A DNA stretch of 7,470 nucleotides, taken from Amoebophrya sp. A120 (lineage: Eukaryota; Protista; Dinoflagellata). The stretch covers positions 1 to 7,470 of the forward strand of contig CAJINV010000101.1 in assembly GCA_905178155.1 (NCBI GenBank). The letters run 5' to 3'. Shown here in pieces: positions 1-7,470 of this stretch. The notes beneath the pieces are model-generated. The model worked only from the letters and a program-made list of their open reading frames with translations. It did no database searches and was not told the DNA's origin. A program made the position numbers and the translations under genes. How positions within the stretch are numbered: position 1 is the stretch's first letter; each line of letters opens with the position of its first letter.

Positions 1-30
1 TTCCAGACCCAGACATATTTGCACTTGATA
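1..30. mobile_element. Right TIR of a family A introner (partial; same sequence as 7376-7405)
   Basis: TTCCAGACCCAGACATATTTGCACTTGATA followed by presumptive DR CACAA (31-35). Confidence 0.85.
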
Positions 31-383
31 CACAACGTCTCTCTGCAAGACTTGGTGAAACTTCTCTCCATCGCGTACTTCCCGTACGAGAGCGACAAGG
101 CACTCCACGCCGCGGTCCAGGATGAATTCACGCAATTTGACCACAGCAGCCCGGAAGTGACGGCCAACAGTACCACTACACAGAGCGGCACGGGTAATCG
201 ACTTCTAAATCAGCCCGAACAGATTTCCTCCCGGTCGCCATCTAAATTGTCGGAAGCGAGCGTGAAAAGCGACAAAACAACAAGCTCATCGACCACGAGC
301 GCGATTTCTGCCAAAACCTTGAATCTCCTCCGCACACCGACGAAGAAAGAGAGAACCCAGGCGCTGCTCCGGTTCCGCGAAGT
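31..383 (+). CDS. ovoA: ovoA exon 1 (first visible; N-terminal extension and Ser/Thr-rich linker)
   Basis: HNVSLQDLVKLLSIAYFPYESDK...KERTQALLRFREV, in frame with exon 2 after removal of 384-643. No ATG start; preceded by the right end of an introner. Confidence 0.75.
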
Positions 384-3300
384 TATCAACTGCAAATATG
401 TCTGGGTCTCGAAGAAGGCAAGATTTTTCATCCTCAGCTAGCATGATTCTCAAGTCTGTCATGCACGTTACCCAAGAGCCTCGCTTTTCTGTCATGCGGA
501 AACGCAGTTTGTCATGCAGAATAGACTACAGTCCGACCACATCAGAAACTTGTCATGCTGGAACGGCACTTGCGGCACCCTAATCATTCGCCAAACAGCA
601 TCACAAGTTTCCAGACCCAGACATATTTGCAGTTGATAGAAGTGTTGAAGCACCAATTCCTGCAGACCTTCAACATCTACGAACGGCTTTTCTCCACCAT
701 CGCGACCTATCATTTGTAAAAACGTCCCCACACCAGGGTTGTCATGCAGATTTGCAACGACAGGAACATTTGTGATGCGCATCTCCATGAAAGGTATTTT
801 TAGTCGTGTTTTGGAATTTGTAATGCTGTAACCAGGATAGGCCGATGGATTTGTGATGCGTTTGTCCTTGCTACCCTGCACTTCACTACGAACTCCAACT
901 TGTGATGCGTGAGAACCAAAACTTCTAGGTTTGTGTTGCAAAGTCCCCATCTTGACTCTGTCGTGGGGACGTTTTTCCTTTTGATACGACCCCCGGACTG
1001 TTCTACCGCGCGGAGCGGTTGCGACACCACTTGATTTTCTATCTCGGCCACACTGCGGTTTTTTACTGGAACAAACTGATCTCCGCTGGCTGGGTGTGTG
1101 CGAACCAGCGCTTGCACGAGAAATTTGAAGCGATTTTCGCAGTGGGGGTGGACGAAATGAGCTGGGACGACCTGTTGGAAGATAATTACGACTGGTGCGG
1201 GTTTTCGGTGGAGCAGCAAGAGAACTATCGGAAGGAAGTGGAACAGTACAGGGCTTCCGTGCGGGAAGAGGTGTGTCGCCTGATCGACGAGTACGTGCTG
1301 GAGGAAGATATCACTGTTGGTCGGACGAATCCACGGACTGCACCAGATGAAAACAACACCTCTTTCCTCGCCTTTCAACCGGACGAACGGACTGTGGAAA
1401 AAAAGAACAGCAACATGAAAAAACCACATCAGCTATCAATTGCAAATATGTCTGGGTCTGGAAACTCGTGATGCTAAAATGTGCATGATGGAACAACTTC
1501 CGAATGCAGACCAGCATGACAACTTTCCGAAGCACTTTCTGATATGCTGCCCGCATGAGAAACTGCGTTTTTGCATGACAAAAATGGGTGCGGCTTTTGT
1601 CGGTTATGCAATACAGATTTCCCGGGAATGTAAAGCTAGCATTACAAGTTCCAACTTTCCAGACCCAGACATATTTGCATTTGATATCAGCAAGTGCGCG
1701 ACAACGCGCCACTGTTAAAGGCGACTTGCGGGAAACTCGTGTCGGAGTACATTTTGAAGTATCAAAAGGAAAAATCCCCCCTCCCCATATCAAAACGAAA
1801 TTTCTGATGCTGGATTTGGATACACAAATCAAATTTGTGTTGCAGTAGAGGAATGCACGCAGATCCTGAGCCTAGGCGGGGGCCTTTTGGTGTAGGCGCC
1901 TAGCATAGTAGACGGCTACCTTGTAGGCCGCAGAGCATTACAAATCGCCTGCATAACGTGGCGGCCAGCCTGAGTGTGCCTGCTTGCAAGACAGACCCGA
2001 TTTGTGGTCACAAATCAGCAACACAAATTATCGGAAACATACCTTTTCGATATGGGGAGAGGGGATTTTTCCTTTCGATATAAAGTACTGCACAACTACG
2101 TCCGCTACCAGCAACTTAGGTGGTGGAACCAACAACGCCCCCCTTGCGAAGCAGTTGCAAAATACCATGATCTGGATTCTGCTGATGGGCGCCGAGCACG
2201 AAAAGATCCACCAAGAAACCAGCTGCCCCATCCTGTCCCAGATGCCCTTGCAATACTTGAACAAGACACACCGGTGGCTGTACCCGATGGCAGAAGTCAA
2301 GACAAGTTCGTCCTCTTACTACGAAAGATCCGGCAACCCGCTGGTGCCCGTGAAAATGACGAGCTTGCTGAACACGGAGGATGAAGAACCCGCGGTGCAG
2401 CTCAGGTTCGGGAAAAACCACCTCGAATCGGATTTCTACGGGTGGGACAACGAGTTTGACAGTGAGCAGGCGAGTTTGTTGCCGTTTCAGGTCAGCCAAA
2501 CGCTGGTGTCCAACGCGGAGTTTTTAGAATTTGTGTTGGACGACGGGTACAAAAAAAAGCACTTCTGGACGGAGGAAGGGTGGCGGTTCGTCCAGGACCT
2601 CAACGTGGACCGGCCGCGGTTCTTATGCAAGAAGAAAAGTGTGGAAGTGTGAGTCTGTAATGCATAAGTGCGTACCACAATTATCACTTGTCATGCTAGC
2701 CAGCCACGATGTCCTTTTTTCATGAGTGTTTTTGAGTACTAGCTGCGCATGACAGGATTTCTTTGTCATACAGAGCAAATTTGTCATGCAGTCATGGCAC
2801 AAGACACGTTCACTAAACACAGTTTTTTTCCTTTGGACACTTCTGGCTCGACGCGGATAACGAAGTCGAAATGCAAACCGGCCGACCGTATAAAATGTAA
2901 AAATGTCTGGGCCTGGAAGATTCCCAGGCCTGTCATGCAGATTTTCCATGATCCATGTCGTCTGGAATGCAGGACCTAGCATGACAGGTTCTGTGAGAGT
3001 TCTATCATGCCTATCCGGCATGAGAAACTGCCTCTCACTTAGATCAAAATTGGACAGCTTTTGGCATTCATGCAACACAGATTTTTGCACGATCCAGAAT
3101 TAGCATTACAAGTTGCAACCTTCCAGACCCAGACATATTTGCAGTTCATAGACCGGTGACCAGCAGCGTGACGAAAGCTGAGCTGGACCAGGTTTTACTA
3201 CAACTTGATGGTAAGAACAAAAACCACGAGCAGATGCAAAAGAAACAGGACAAGCACAAAAATTTCGTCTACCGGGCCATGCTCTCCATCATCCCCATGC

Positions 3301-6300
3301 CGTGGGACTGGCCGGCGGAGGTCAACTATGCACTGCAAATCTGTTTGGTGTTCTGGAACAATGCTTAAATTTGTCATGCCTTTCTAGCATGACAACTCTG
3401 AGGTTTCTTATGCCCTCTTGCCTGTCATGCAAAAACGCACTCTCGTCCCAACATGCGGAATTCGCAAAACATCAGAAATTTGTGATGCGTGGCTGCATTT
3501 TCAAGTACGCTCATCAATCGCAGACTTGCATCACAAGTTCGTCCCAGACCTAAACATTTTTGCATTTGATATGAACCAGCTCGAGGCAGCGGCGTTTTGC
3601 AAGTGGAAGGCGGAGAAATTGAGCCAGCCGGATTTGCGACTGCTGGGGCATCCAGAGCAACTGTACCTGGCGCTGCATTGCGAAAAGGGGTTTGGGAAGA
3701 ACGCAAATTTAGCAGGTTTTGCGTCGCCGACCAGCGTGAATGTGCACTATGGGTACAGCAATTGTAGTACACCGTCGGAGGTGGATTCATCATCGTCAAA
3801 TAACCCGAAAGAGAAAAAAACGAAAATCTACGACATTGAGGGGAATGTTTGGCGGCACTCGATCTCCGTACTCACCCTAATGGACGGGTTTCAGCCGCAC
3901 ATTGCCTACGACGATTTTACCCTCCCTACCATTGATGGGGAGCACAACTTTATCGCAAGAAAAACTGTCTCAGTCTCAAAACTTTGCAGACGCAGCAATA
4001 CAAATTTGCCAAGCAAGAAACAAAAAATCTGTGATGCGTTCAAACATCAAGGGATAACACGTAAGGAAGGACGTCTTTCTTGATGCATTTCCGGCATGAC
4101 AAAAAACTGTCTCAAGGAAGTTGCGCATTACAGCTTGAGAGTGAGTAGACTGTGACAGTTTTTTCTCGCGACAAGTTTTATCCTGGGCGGGTCCTGGACC
4201 AGTATTGGAAACTGCGCGAACCCGGGGTCCAGGTACGGGTTCCGCCGGCACTTTTACCAGTACGCAGGGATCCGATTCTGTAGCGACTTCGGCGGGAAAA
4301 ATCTGCCGGTACTTCTTGTTTTTCGTACGAACTTCTCGATGTAAGTTGTAGCCATTTTATACGGAGGACCTTTCGTCCAGTACAACGACCCACATGAGCT
4401 ATTCAAACTATTGTGTTCATAATTCACATTTTTGGGAACGACCGTTTAATTTGATGTTGATCACACGAGACAAAGCAGAAGAAACAACTTTTCACGGTCT
4501 TCTTCCACCTATCCCCTACGAAAAACCTCTCGTGGTCTTGCAATAAAAGGGCGAAATACTAGAAACGAGTCGGTACTAGAGTGGTGAAAGTATATGTGCT
4601 TGTCTCGCGCAAAAATACAGAGGCTTCATTTGTTCGACCTTCTCTCACCAAAAACAGATGATCCACACGTCTGCACCCAAGATCCACGCGGCGACCCCGC
4701 TGGGCGTGAAACTTTCGGAGCACTACTACGAACTGTACGAGAGTCCAAACGCACTGCTGGGGCTGGATCAAGCCTACCTCGAACAGTACTTGCAAAAAGA
4801 TCACAAGCCGGTGTCCAACTGGCCACGGCTCTTCGGCGAGATTGCTAGCTACGTCGTCGATGCGGTGCAGCAAGGGACGAAACAGGATGAAGGAGGACCA
4901 CAGCCAATAAACACGAATAACAACACGGGTTCCCCTATCCTGAGGAAAAACGTCCCCACCCCAGAGTTGTCATGCAGATTTGCAATGACAAGGAAATTTG
5001 TGATGCGCATACCCATGGTAGACATTTCCAATCGTATTTTGGAATTTGTGATGCTGATAACAGGATAAGCAAATGAATCTGTGATGCGGCTGCACTTGCT
5101 AACCTGCACTACACTGCGGAGTGCAACTTGTCATGCGTGACTCCCAAAACTCCTAGGTTTGTGTTGCAAAATCCCCATCCTGACTCTGGTGTGGGGACGT
5201 TTTTGCTCAGGATGTCCCCCCGCCTGAAAGTCCTGGTCGCAAACGGGTCCGTCGGTCGCTGCTCGTTGGATATCACACAGAAAAAAGCAGGCAGGTCAAA
5301 CTTGTAATGCGACAATAAATAGACAAAAAAAATCTGTGTTGCATGTCCTGAACGGCATGCTACGGGGTTGCGCATGACAGATTTTACTGCGTATTCATTT
5401 TTGCATCACAAACATGCCCTGCCTGGTTTTTTCTGTGGGATATTGGAGTTGTTGAAGAAGTGCAAGAAGCTCGACGTGACCCACACGGACCCTATCGAAT
5501 GCAAATATGTCTGGGTCTGGAAGGTCGCAAGACTTGTCATGCAGGTTTTCCATGACAAATGCGGTCTGTCACATATGAACTAGCATGACAGATTCTGCGC
5601 CACCTCTATCATGCATCGTCTGCATGAGAAACTGCCTCTCAACTTGGTCAAAAGTGGGCAGTTGTTGGTAATCACGCAACACAGATTTTTGCACTATCCA
5701 GAATTAGCATGACAAGTTCCAGCGTTCCAGACCCAGACATATTTGCAATGCATAGACCCAACGGCGAATCTGCTCGCCCCGTTACAAGAGCTGTTGGACT
5801 CGGGGAAAGTGCAGTGGCGACAGACGATCGAGGGCGAGATCTGCGACCAAAGGGAGTACTTGCTGATGTCGGACGATAAAAATTCTATCACAGACGACAA
5901 CCATGGCAGCAACAGCAACACCACAAAGTCTTTTTTAGAAAAAAACGACAACACCTGCAATTTGGTTCAGATCCAAGACTACAAAACGTCATTGAACAAG
6001 CTCCCGACGAACCAGACCTTCGACATTTTACTTGCCGATTTCCGCTACACGAACTGCGAAGAAGAGCTAGCTGTTATCGTAAGGAAAAATCCCCCCTCCC
6101 CATCTTGAAAAGAAAATTTGTGATGCTGATTTGTGACCACAAATCAGCTTTGTCTTGCGTACAAGGCAAACGGCACCCATGTGGCGCATTGGAAAGCGAG
6201 TCTGTCATCCGTTTTCGCCTATGGCAGACTTGTTTCCCATGCTCATCTGCTAGCCGGGTGAGTAGTCACATGGGCTCAGAATCTGCCGGCAACCTGTTGC

Positions 6301-7151
6301 TGCAATACAAAGCTCATTTGTGTACACAAATCCAGCAACACAAATTGTCTTTTGAATATGAGGTGGAGCTTTTTTCACTTTGATAGCCGCCCTCGCCTCC
6401 CGCTGCCACGGAGTTCTACTGCTCGCGACGCTGCATATCAAATGCAAATATGTCTGGGTCTGGAAACTTGTGATGCTAAAACGTGGATGATAGAAACAGT
6501 CCCGAATGCAACCCAGCATGACAACTTTCTAGAACGCTTTCTCATAGGAAATCCGCATGAGAAACTGCGTTTTTGTATGTACAAAAGAGGCCGCGACTTT
6601 TGCTGGTTACGCAATACAGATTTCCTAGGTATCGAAAGCAAGCATTACAAGTTCCAACCCTCCAGACCCAGACATATTTGCATTTGATACTGCACAAAGT
6701 CGAGCAGCTCCCCGGGTTCGAAAAGTCGGATTTGCTGGACAGCGTCCGCGCGGAGGCCCTCGGTTTTTTCACCTCCAATGGCGACCGGGAGCCGGAAAGG
6801 ACGAAATCTATCAAATGCAAAAATGTCTGGGTCTGGGAGATCGCGAGACTTGTCATGCTACTCTGGCATGACACTGGAATCTGTGTTGCGTAGCCGCATA
6901 GAGCTCCTCTTCCTTGTCATGCAAAAACGCAGTTTCTCATGCGGAGGACGCAATTCAGAACCACGAAAAAACTTGTCATGCTTGGCAGCGCATTACAGCG
7001 TGCTCGCTATTCCTTTCCTTGCATCACAAGTTTCAAGACCCAGACATATTTGCAATGCATAAAGTCCCATTGGAGACGAATGCGGGCGAAGGGGGTGGCG
7101 CACTTGGAGAAGCAAACGATCCACAAACACCAGTTTTTCCGCAGTTACCTT
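31..7151 (+). CDS. ovoA: OvoA-like 5-histidylcysteine sulfoxide synthase / methyltransferase (ovothiol synthase), multi-exon, 5' and 3' partial
   Basis: Manual join of 31-383, 644-707, 992-1433, 1692-1759, 2086-2623, 2845-2888, 3156-3326, 3577-3950, 4179-4308, 4658-4935, 5220-5270, 5448-5492, 5760-6074, 6391-6435, 6695-6808, 7067-7151 gives 3117 nt (1039 codons) with no stop. Motifs recognised from memory as OvoA-family, in the expected order: LRHHLIFYLGHT, FAVGVDEMSWDDL, MGAEHEKIHQETS (HX3HXE), YGWDNE, VSNAEFLEFV, MPWDWPAEVN, GNVW, YDDF, GGSWTSIGN, RRHFYQYAGIR, then a methyltransferase-like region. Exact junctions can slide within the 5-nt DRs. Confidence 0.92.
384..638. mobile_element. Family A TIR introner, 255 nt (non-canonical intron 1, orientation R)
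   Basis: Perfect 26-nt TIR TATCAACTGCAAATATGTCTGGGTCT; DR GAAGT at 379-383 and 639-643. Confidence 0.92.
644..707 (+). CDS. ovoA: ovoA exon 2
   Basis: LKHQFLQTFNIYERLFSTIAT, resembling the first helix of the OvoA DinB-like domain; in frame on both sides. Confidence 0.85.
708..986. mobile_element. Family B TIR introner, 279 nt (intron 2)
   Basis: TATCATTTGTAAAAACGTCCCCAC ... GTGGGGACGTTTTTCCTTTTGATA; DR CGACC at 703-707 and 987-991; colinear with and the same length as 4936-5214. Confidence 0.92.
992..1433 (+). CDS. ovoA: ovoA exon 3 (DinB-like domain)
   Basis: PGLFYRAERLRHHLIFYLGHTAVFYWNKL...FEAIFAVGVDEMSWDDL; overlaps ORF 1019..1471. Confidence 0.93.
1434..1686. mobile_element. Family A TIR introner, 253 nt (intron 3, orientation F)
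   Basis: TATCAATTGCAAATATGTCTGGGTCTGGAAA ... TTTCCAGACCCAGACATATTTGCATTTGATA; DR TCAGC at 1429-1433 and 1687-1691; close relative of 6436-6689. Confidence 0.92.
1692..1759 (+). CDS. ovoA: ovoA exon 4
   Basis: QVRDNAPLLKATCGKLVSEYILK; open and in frame between two elements; no recognised motif. Confidence 0.75.
1760..2080. mobile_element. Family C TIR introner, 321 nt (intron 4)
   Basis: TATCAAAAGGAAAAATCCCCCCTCCCCATATC ... GATATGGGGAGAGGGGATTTTTCCTTTCGATA; DR TGAAG (1755-1759) / TAAAG (2081-2085). Confidence 0.9.
2086..2623 (+). CDS. ovoA: ovoA exon 5 (HX3HXE iron motif, start of FGE-like domain)
   Basis: IWILLMGAEHEKIHQETS...FYGWDNEF...VSNAEFLEFVLDDGY...WTEEGW...RPRF; overlaps ORF 1984..2652. 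Confidence 0.93.
2624..2839. mobile_element. Degenerate TIR introner, 216 nt (intron 5, tentatively family D)
   Basis: TATGCAAGAAGAAAAGTGTG ... CACAGTTTTTTTCCTTTGGACA, a decayed IR; DR GTTCT (2619-2623) / CTTCT (2840-2844); internal TGTNATGC motifs. Confidence 0.75.
2845..2888 (+). CDS. ovoA: ovoA exon 6
   Basis: Completes PRF-W across the junction, then LDADNEVEMQTGRP; in frame. Confidence 0.8.
2889..3150. mobile_element. Family A TIR introner, 262 nt (intron 6, orientation F)
   Basis: TATAAAATGTAAAAATGTCTGGGCCTGGAAG ... CTTCCAGACCCAGACATATTTGCAGTTCATA; DR GACCG at 2884-2888 and 3151-3155; same length as and colinear with 5493-5754. Confidence 0.92.
3156..3326 (+). CDS. ovoA: ovoA exon 7
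   Basis: ...YRAMLSIIPMPWDWPAEVN; overlaps ORF 3156..3368. Confidence 0.9.
3327..3571. mobile_element. Family A TIR introner, 245 nt (intron 7, orientation R, decayed)
   Basis: TATGCACTGCAAATCTGTTTGG ... CCAGACCTAAACATTTTTGCATTTGATA; DR TCAAC (3322-3326) / TGAAC (3572-3576). Confidence 0.87.
3577..3950 (+). CDS. ovoA: ovoA exon 8 (FGE-like domain)
   Basis: QLEAAAFCKWK...YDIEGNVW...GFQPHIAYDDFTLPTIDGEHNF; overlaps ORF 3418..4083. Confidence 0.92.
3951..4173. mobile_element. Family D TIR introner, 223 nt (intron 8)
   Basis: TATCGCAAGAAAAACTGTCTCAGTCT ... AGACTGTGACAGTTTTTTCTCGCGACA; degenerate DR AACTT (3946-3950) / AGTTT (4174-4178); contains an in-frame stop (4081-4083). Confidence 0.85.
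4179..4308 (+). CDS. ovoA: ovoA exon 9 (end of FGE-like domain)
   Basis: ILGGSWTSIGNCANPGSRYGFRRHFYQYAGIRFCSDFGGKNLP; absent from the ORF track. The 3' boundary could instead be 4340. Confidence 0.88.
4309..4657 (+). other. Probable canonical GT-AG spliceosomal intron (intron 9)
   Basis: CCG|GTACTT ... AAAAACAG|ATG, phase 0, in frame; more AT-rich than the exons; no TIR, DR or TGTNATGC motif seen. An alternative in-frame pair is GTAAGT at 4341 with TACAG ending at 4620. Confidence 0.65.
4658..4935 (+). CDS. ovoA: ovoA exon 10 (start of methyltransferase-like region)
   Basis: MIHTSAPK...KLSEHYYE...NWPRLFGE...NTGSP, preceded by AAAAACAG; overlaps ORF 4658..5068. Confidence 0.78.
4936..5214. 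mobile_element. Family B TIR introner, 279 nt (intron 10)
   Basis: TATCCTGAGGAAAAACGTCCCCACCCCAGAGT ... ACTCTGGTGTGGGGACGTTTTTGCTCAGGATG; DR TCCCC at 4931-4935 and 5215-5219. Confidence 0.92.
5220..5270 (+). CDS. ovoA: ovoA exon 11 (degenerate SAM motif I)
   Basis: RLKVLVANGSVGRCSLE, comparable to the typical LDLGCAVGRxSFE. Confidence 0.82.
5271..5442. mobile_element. Family E TIR introner, 172 nt (intron 11)
   Basis: TATCACACAGAAAAAAGCAGGCAGG ... CCTGCCTGGTTTTTTCTGTGGGATA; DR TTGGA at 5266-5270 and 5443-5447. Confidence 0.9.
5448..5492 (+). CDS. ovoA: ovoA exon 12
   Basis: LLKKCKKLDVTHTDP; in frame on both sides. Confidence 0.8.
5493..5754. mobile_element. Family A TIR introner, 262 nt (intron 12, orientation F)
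   Basis: TATCGAATGCAAATATGTCTGGGTCTGGAA ... TTCCAGACCCAGACATATTTGCAATGCATA; DR GACCC at 5488-5492 and 5755-5759. Confidence 0.92.
5760..6074 (+). CDS. ovoA: ovoA exon 13
   Basis: TANLLAPLQELLDSGKVQWRQTIEGEI...FDILLADFRY...EELAV; overlaps ORF 5743..6108. Confidence 0.82.
6075..6385. mobile_element. Family C TIR introner, 311 nt (intron 13, inverted relative to intron 4)
   Basis: TATCGTAAGGAAAAATCCCCCCTCCCCATC ... ATATGAGGTGGAGCTTTTTTCACTTTGATA; DR GCTGT (6070-6074) / GCCGC (6386-6390). Confidence 0.85.
6391..6435 (+). CDS. ovoA: ovoA exon 14
   Basis: LASRCHGVLLLATLH, comparable to the methyltransferase LxPGGxLxL strand; in frame. Confidence 0.78.
6436..6689. mobile_element. Family A TIR introner, 254 nt (intron 14, orientation F)
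   Basis: Perfect TIR TATCAAATGCAAATATGTCTGGGTCTGGA; DR CTGCA at 6431-6435 and 6690-6694. Confidence 0.93.
6695..6808 (+). CDS. ovoA: ovoA exon 15
   Basis: KVEQLPGFEKSDLLDSVRAEALGFFTSNGDREPERTKS; in frame. Confidence 0.78.
6809..7061. mobile_element. Family A TIR introner, 253 nt (intron 15, orientation R)
   Basis: TATCAAATGCAAAAATGTCTGGGTCT ... AGACCCAGACATATTTGCAATGCATA; DR AAATC (6804-6808) / AAGTC (7062-7066). Confidence 0.92.
7067..7151 (+). CDS. ovoA: ovoA exon 16 (last visible, near C-terminus)
   Basis: HWRRMRAKGVAHLEKQTIHKHQFFRSYL, loosely similar to the OvoA C-terminal VPFVIRETxRKFQH segment; no stop codon reached. Confidence 0.72.
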
Positions 7152-7405
7152 TATCAAATGCAAATATGTCTGGTTCTGGAAGGGTGTAAGTTGTAATGCT
7201 GCATTTGGATTCCAAAAAAAATCTGTGTTGCAGGAATAGCAAAAGGGGTGCGTTTTTTGCCACGCGGAGGGAGTATTTCTCATGCAGTATGGGCATCAGA
7301 AAGCCGTCACAATATCTGTGACGCTAGGGCATGCATCACAGACATCGCCGGTGATACAAAATGTGCATGACAAACTTCCAGACCCAGACATATTTGCACT
7401 TGATA
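7152..7405. mobile_element. Family A TIR element, 254 nt, apparently hybrid (closes the circle; orientation R)
   Basis: Normal TIRs, but the flanks ACCTT (7147-7151) and CACAA (7406-7410) do not match and the junction is out of frame. Confidence 0.85.
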
Positions 7406-7470
7406 CACAACGTCTCTCTGCAAGACTTGGTGAAACTTCTCTCCATCGCGTACTTCCCGTACGAGAGCGA
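7376..7470 (+). repeat. Exact 95-nt terminal direct repeat of 1-95 (circular or tandem contig overlap; unit 7375 bp)
   Basis: TTCCAGACCC...GTACGAGAGCGA is identical at both ends of the window. Confidence 0.95.

Follow-up and report, generated by a model that had tools for sequence, protein, structure and literature searches.

Amoebophrya has tens of thousands of introns to remove that lack GT-AG ends, and the locus analysed here, a 7,470-nt stretch of the Amoebophrya sp. A120 genome (contig CAJINV010000101.1, hereafter the window), presents the problem within a single gene. Farhat et al. (2021) reported A120 introners with a TAT-N7-AAA motif and 5-bp direct repeats and, in the accessible part of the text, described the position of the border as unknown (PMC7789003). 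Gozashti et al. (2025), in the portion available, distinguished 58 introner families in A120, mostly with non-canonical sites, and an ORF-bearing family, family 38, has been reported (PMC12130899, accessible text). None of the accessible sources settles the catalytic mechanism. The accessible main text of Farhat et al. mentions neither lariat, imperfect nor template switch (PMC7789003), and among the papers listed in a literature search covering few subscription journals, none gave a register or a branch point for A120.

The window derives from strain A120 itself, in keeping with the link to Amoebophrya drawn in the original prediction. The protein search suggested there for taxonomy returned A120 protein CAD7946966.1 (P0001; 1872 aa), to which exon 2086-2622 is 100% identical, and the in-window product matches this protein at 100% identity across 728 + 187 residues. 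A single frame is open from 31 to 7150 (1038-1039 codons) after deletion of each of the 14 elements with 5 further nt, plus one GT-AG intron. It had been predicted that removing element plus 5 nt would restore the frame; the four junction motifs listed at the time are rebuilt, and the prediction needs to be extended by the GT-AG intron. Similarly, the predicted 1039-aa spliced protein does have an open frame, yet it is only the middle fragment of a protein of ~2000 aa. P0001 is probably an OvoA-type sulfoxide synthase with methyltransferase: it scores 396 bits against TIGR04344 (cut-off 400; E 2e-118), compared with 78 and 77 bits for the EgtB and SenA models, and a relative, P0004, exceeds the cut-off at 406 bits. 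The top structure match of the orthologue P0002 is a solved OvoA. For the C-terminal methyltransferase model TIGR04345, whose cut-off is 170, the score is 100 bits (E 1e-28) and the match falls in sequence beyond the window; weak Pfam matches on single frames, under the cut-off, were disregarded. Between the in-window product and the orthologue from a transcriptome, 559/949 aligned residues are identical; these data support an intact and conserved gene. The 123-aa stretch missing from P0001, which falls between the two matched blocks, is present in transcript-type contigs and is identical to the orthologue at 67/111 positions. A donor at 4341 for the ordinary intron was rejected, as the contigs place this intron at 4309-4657.

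All 14 predicted inserts with inverted repeats were recovered, with lengths of 172-321 nt and the same eight perfect 5-nt repeats, the other six repeats being imperfect (3-4 of 5 matches). Direct repeats agree at 62/70 positions, for which the chance is ~4e-27 at 0.27 per base. Every element starts with TAT, and the ends are ATA in 11, ACA in two and ATG in one; the TAT-N7-AAA end motif is exact at 13/14 left ends and 11/14 right ends. In the terminal inverted repeats, 12-20 of the first 20 positions pair ungapped in 14/14 elements. GC content is 44% in the elements and 54% in the exons, and three pairs of elements (2/9, 3/13 and 6/11) form families within the window at 80-84% likeness. As had been predicted, GT-AG or GC-AG boundaries are obtained for 0/14 elements at any length-preserving register from -8 to +3. 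A search of Rfam gave 0 matches, as did a search for the end motif among viral contigs. Long hairpins are predicted for 2/14 elements (z -11 and -13). The count of 14 elements stands for the range originally given, just past which lies a fifteenth (Table 1).

Table 1. Features of the window, with the direct repeats given as left / right copy
Feature	Positions	Strand	Direct repeat	Skipped in RNA-type contigs (nt)	Remarks
OvoA (ovothiol synthase) fusion gene, middle part, Amoebophrya sp. A120	31..7150	+			16 exons in window, 3116 coding nt
Element 1, 255 nt	384..638	+	GAAGT, perfect	260	
Element 2, 279 nt	708..986	+	CGACC, perfect	284	83% like element 9
Element 3, 253 nt	1434..1686	+	TCAGC, perfect	258	84% like element 13
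Element 4, 321 nt	1760..2080	+	TGAAG / TAAAG	326	left copy retained to position 2 or beyond
Element 5, 216 nt	2624..2839	+	GTTCT / CTTCT	221	ends ACA; left copy at position 1
Element 6, 262 nt	2889..3150	+	GACCG, perfect	267	80% like element 11
Element 7, 245 nt	3327..3571	+	TCAAC / TGAAC	250	left copy retained to position 2
Element 8, 223 nt	3951..4173	+	AACTT / AGTTT	228	ends ACA; left copy to position 3
Ordinary GT-AG intron, 349 nt	4309..4657	+			without inverted repeat; skipped in RNA-type contigs
Three exons (123 aa) omitted by public gene model P0001	4658..5487	+			seen in RNA-type contigs and orthologue
Element 9, 279 nt	4936..5214	+	TCCCC, perfect	284	ends ATG
Element 10, 172 nt	5271..5442	+	TTGGA, perfect	177	
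Element 11, 262 nt	5493..5754	+	GACCC, perfect	267	
Element 12, 311 nt	6075..6385	+	GCTGT / GCCGC	316	position 3 from left copy, position 5 from right
Element 13, 254 nt	6436..6689	+	CTGCA, perfect	259	predicted long hairpin, z -11
Element 14, 253 nt	6809..7061	+	AAATC / AAGTC	258	left copy to position 3
Element 15, 254 nt	7152..7405	+	none; flanks match 1/5		likely two introns fused by assembly
Exact 95-nt repeat of window 1-95	7376..7470	.			circular contig overlap

The inserts are copies of miniature inverted-repeat transposons: across the window and a related strain they combine a target duplication of fixed length, terminal inverted repeats, a lack of coding capacity and insertion in both orientations. 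They are almost certainly the published A120 introners, with which they share the strain, the motif, the 5-bp repeats, a length near 240 nt and RNA-supported removal without GT-AG (Farhat et al. 2021, PMC7789003), and from which they show no difference in kind. The published class has terminal inverted repeats of 8-20 nt and direct repeats of 3-5 nt at its borders, and the window elements fit both ranges. The suggestion that these families and their shared code might be undescribed is thus not upheld, given the motif and repeats of Farhat et al. 2021 and the 58 families of Gozashti et al. 2025; the intron type is already known and its elements have been published for A120. According to the accessible texts, the introners of Micromonas and Aureococcus are also short non-autonomous transposons with terminal inverted repeats that duplicate their target and are spliced out with the protein unchanged, but they carry or co-opt GT/GC and AG, whereas the A120 elements have neither (PMC11282704, PMC7789003).

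The same element families are found in a relative of A120. A 30-nt end motif occurs in 86 stretches of metagenome contigs, and among the matches listed all loci come from one assembly, whose protein identity to A120 is 86-100% per piece (mostly 91-97%). In 776 kb of this related strain, 13/14 window elements have at least six near-full-length relatives and element 8 has one, counts that are skewed because the loci were picked by the end of one family. The same 776 kb contain 756 candidate elements, 393 of them with perfect 5-nt repeats, and repeat length is sharply 5, with a mean match of 0.74 compared with 0.25-0.30 at lengths 2-4 and 6-9. Element lengths show no preference for multiples of 3. 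By means of a codon model we oriented 425 of 541 elements with good repeats (neighbours agree in 218/221) and left out the remainder; GT/GC-AG is possible in at most 9/425 at any register. Each of the 12 largest families is present in both orientations, which indicates that the signal resides in the ends. Among copies found by their interior alone (n=400), TAT is conserved at 98.1% and AAA at 96.9%, compared with 86.2% for the interior. TAT changes in 1.9%, and the repeat copy inside the intron changes in at least 4.7% (p 2e-7). Across loci L001-L084 the median nearest-copy identity is 87% and two copies reach at least 98%, so most insertions are not very recent. As a separate observation, the raw-read runs X9 and X10 contain 41 and 0 reads matching the window, solely on element-like pieces; X9, an RNA run without the OvoA gene, carries reads that are 90-95% like element 11 (window 5668-5719) and have foreign flanks, and we read them as the transcript of a relative with element 11's family.

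Eight sequencing runs contain part of the window, none of them recorded as RNA. Runs X3, X4 and X5 represent one sample and X7 a second sample of the same study, and the RNA type of all four is predicted. X3, X4 and X5 each contain one contig of 6083-7077 nt that skips 14/14 elements, each by element length plus 5 and with no other letters involved, and that also skips the ordinary GT-AG intron; X7 has 9/14 element+5 joints. Since the ordinary intron is also missing, the X3-X5 and X7 contigs are likely mRNA. The contigs of X1 retain the elements, and one of them spans element 7 without any difference. In eight of the 14 cases element+5 nt is not a multiple of 3, and because the frame is conserved and intact the cell must remove the elements to make the enzyme. 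We conclude that removal very probably takes place at the RNA level, and the precise non-canonical removal that had been predicted is borne out by the 14/14 joints in runs of predicted RNA type, the route not being GT-AG. These contigs conceal minor forms and may not be independent of the public annotation.

The cut is invisible where the repeat is perfect, whereas imperfect repeats reveal it and so provide a simple readout of its true position. The left-copy letter is kept at position 1 in element 5, at position 2 in elements 4 and 7, and at position 3 in elements 8, 12 and 14, and the letter at position 5 does not come from the left copy in elements 12 and 15. With the left copy at position 3 and the right copy at position 5, element 12 by itself places the cut after position 3 or 4. 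All seven informative junctions have only a cut after 3 or 4 in common, which is favoured ~39-fold over a random register, although a cut at 5 is excluded by just two junctions, and at one of them, element 15, the right repeat proper is unseen. We therefore regard as probable a single fixed register, with the cut either 3 or 4 nt inside the left repeat. Such a cut puts the start of the intron 1-2 nt ahead of TAT and its end 3-4 nt past ATA, regardless of the letters there. The public gene model fits a cut at 2-4 and disagrees with 0, 1 or 5. None of the window repeats differ at position 4. In a cross-strain protein comparison (30 ORFs, one of them P0001 itself; six strain ORFs each matched to an A120 protein; four informative sites) position 4 is split one each way, and the sites at positions 2 and 3 point to the left copy; one further homologue search for this comparison found none. 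The direction of repeat mismatches among related-strain copies, judged by codon score or GC content, gave no register signal. Insertion phase is uneven across loci L001-L084, the first base of the repeat being a third codon position in 146/309 perfect-repeat copies (p 8e-7), and target-site base preference is slight; the phase bias is not counted in favour of a cut at 4, because a symmetric target preference would favour the same phase.

The two ends of the elements differ in what they tolerate. Among 418 gene-oriented copies (from 545, excluding 107 unoriented copies and 20 whose repeats were poor), the 5' end carries 1, 2 and 10 mismatches at positions 1, 2 and 3, and the 3' end 8, 4 and 1 (p 0.001). 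The 5' end thus tolerates change at its third base and the 3' end at its last two, the third-last A being changed in 1/418; a strand-shuffle test on an overlapping set gives p 0.002, and the variants come from unlike copies. TAC at the 5' end (8) is more frequent than GTA at the 3' end (1), the opposite of what pairing alone would favour. The three variant ends in the window likewise retain the third-last A. This asymmetry comprises 26 mismatches, noticed post hoc in the other strain and with predicted strand calls, and it singles out one base as a candidate branch point. The fixed register, the use of both orientations and the asymmetry between 5' and 3' ends are additions to the published description of A120 introners. 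The ends are no better conserved in gene-oriented copies than in others (25/836 vs 8/192 changed, p 0.37), and base composition at positions 4-6 does not differ between the two ends, with no sign of branch-box selection around the A. Better conservation of the entire TAT at the 5' end was rejected (410 vs 415 of 425); only the difference by individual position holds.

The asymmetry in conservation suggests a divergent spliceosome guided by the hairpin of the element ends, and, taken as a whole, we lean towards the following account. A transposase would insert the element and leave a 5-bp target duplication. In the pre-mRNA, the paired ends would form a stem that joins both cut sites and replaces recognition by U1. 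The cuts, after position 3 or 4, would be set by the distance from the paired TAT...ATA, so that one repeat's worth is removed and the protein remains unchanged. A divergent spliceosome would then excise element+5, with the third-last A of the element as candidate branch point. If the cut falls after position 4, the intron would start N-U-A, with U at +2 and A at +3, the places they have in GUA. The conserved A would then lie 7 nt before the 3' cut, or 6 nt before it if the cut falls after 3. Given the place of the branch A within the yeast and Trichomonas motif, 6-7 nt is within the range of fixed distances from branch to acceptor in some yeasts and Trichomonas. For Yarrowia, Candida guilliermondii and Trichomonas, the accessible text describes branch points held at such a short distance from the 3' end (PMC2483917). 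A120 retains nearly all spliceosome proteins and U2, U4, U5 and U6, and U1 was not detected, according to the part of the source available (PMC7789003). Neither G at +1 nor terminal AG is kept in the elements. The known spliceosome core requires both G at +1 and AG at the intron end. In the stems of related-strain copies, G-U pairs number 294 and A-C pairs 296, and this lack of an excess of G-U gives no sign of selection for RNA pairing. We give even chances to spliceosomal removal with the third-last A as branch. A tentative extension, which we hold to be possible rather than probable, is that the A120 spliceosome disregards both boundary dinucleotides and that the end hairpin substitutes for U1 and U2 site recognition, offering U-A immediately within the 5' cut and a branch A at a constant 6-7 nt from the 3' cut, so that inserts would be born as clean introns in either orientation and at any site. 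If the spliceosomal reading is true, it would widen the range accepted by the splicing core and would explain how a transposon family can fill genes harmlessly. Together, the register and the lead on the branch point make the question of removal directly testable.

The strongest alternative retains the same ruler at the RNA level but assigns the cutting to a non-spliceosomal nuclease and ligase, or to a one-off ribonucleoprotein, acting at the base of the stem, with the intron leaving in linear or circular form as proposed for euglenids. The fully degenerate boundary dinucleotides and the long, stable stems (z -11 and -13) would suit such an enzyme, as would the precedent of Euglena, whose nonconventional introns, in the accessible texts, rely on a paired motif that lies a set distance from the cuts (PMC12501133) and leave as circles with no lariat form (PMC11282704). 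The likeness extends to free boundary dinucleotides, a suspected MITE origin and slidable repeats (Nomura et al. 2025, PMC12501133, as far as accessible). However, Euglena belongs to a lineage unrelated to Amoebophrya, and the motif given in the accessible text is N3-CDG ... CHG-N5-6 with a purine at the exon start, compared with N1-2-TAT ... ATA-N3-4 in A120 (PMC12501133); the window elements, which end in TAT ... ATA, do not carry the euglenid signature. A stem joining the intron ends, a euglenid trait, is predicted here in the folds of two of the 14 elements. The bases kept at each specific end match U at +2, A at +3 and a branch-like A, which counts against a nuclease, although it merely tilts the odds because a nuclease might also read asymmetric bases. 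We consider removal by nuclease and ligase somewhat unlikely.

It is less likely still that the cut slides inside the direct repeat by repeat homology, 3-4 being merely the commonest outcome. In the accessible text of Farhat et al., the location of splice sites with respect to the hairpin is given as variable (PMC7789003), the two cross-strain comparisons at position 4 conflict, and the contigs display the major form only, all of which a sliding cut would accommodate. Yet 7/7 junctions are compatible with 3 or 4, and the printed variability may stem from aligner ambiguity in perfect repeats. Moreover, the repeat copies decay approximately neutrally, with half of their mismatches (68/136) at third codon positions, so that repeat identity is not strongly held.

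Template switching by reverse transcriptase at hairpins with flanking direct repeats is a very improbable source of the joints: hairpins and direct repeats do favour this artefact, as the accessible text describes (PMC4176328), but a single 6083-nt contig lacks all 14 elements together, elements 12 and 14 were joined with just 1-2 shared letters, and the exons are conserved and intact in frame, yet 8/14 inserts shift the frame. Least probable of all is excision from the DNA of an expressed genome copy, as with the internal eliminated sequences of ciliates, since, despite the transposon-like ends, the single repeat copy left behind and the merely predicted run type of X3-X5, the same contigs lack the ordinary GT-AG intron too, as in mRNA, X1 contigs retain the elements at an even depth near 40 and end conservation tracks gene sense, although a rare joined DNA form may exist beyond the joints listed.

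The contig itself is circular, and the circle closes via element 15, whose flanks probably come from two different introns. Transcript-type contigs have other neighbours both where they enter the window, at 31, and where they leave it, after 7150; they extend 2238 nt before 31 and ~730 nt after 7150, and P0001 shares these sequences. The circle is likely an assembly join of two similar introns at element 15, and it may instead be a real excised DNA circle. Closure through this element would require two introns of the same gene, ~7.4 kb apart, to share a long and nearly identical stretch, which may reflect recent local copying, gene conversion or a genuine circle of DNA. We rejected the reading of a true circle carrying a permuted gene that starts at 4658, because transcript-type contigs run through 4307-4657 and exit both window ends. 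In run X3, the window's own letters inside element 15 (7246-7356) are covered at a depth near 21-25, unlike those of other elements; this coverage may represent a retained intron, an excised intron or an identical copy elsewhere.

Finally, the encoded protein departs from known OvoA in its architecture. A sulfoxide synthase region is followed by a methyltransferase, as in OvoA (TIGR04344, TIGR04345; PDB 8khq), but the A120 protein has ~2000 aa, with an extra N-terminal domain of ~620 aa and an additional region ahead of the last methyltransferase domain. The N-terminal domain (P0001 residues 1-620, upstream of window 31) is fused before the OvoA part, is conserved in the orthologue P0002 and matches weakly a PLP-enzyme model of the cysteine-desulfurase family (E 8.5e-5); judging from sequence, it is possibly the C-S lyase of the ovothiol pathway, present in one polypeptide with the synthase. 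The region before the last P0001 domain looks methyltransferase-like when judged by eye. The last ~40 residues of P0001, beyond the window, are unlike the end of the orthologue, and this divergent C-terminus perhaps reflects another missed intron.
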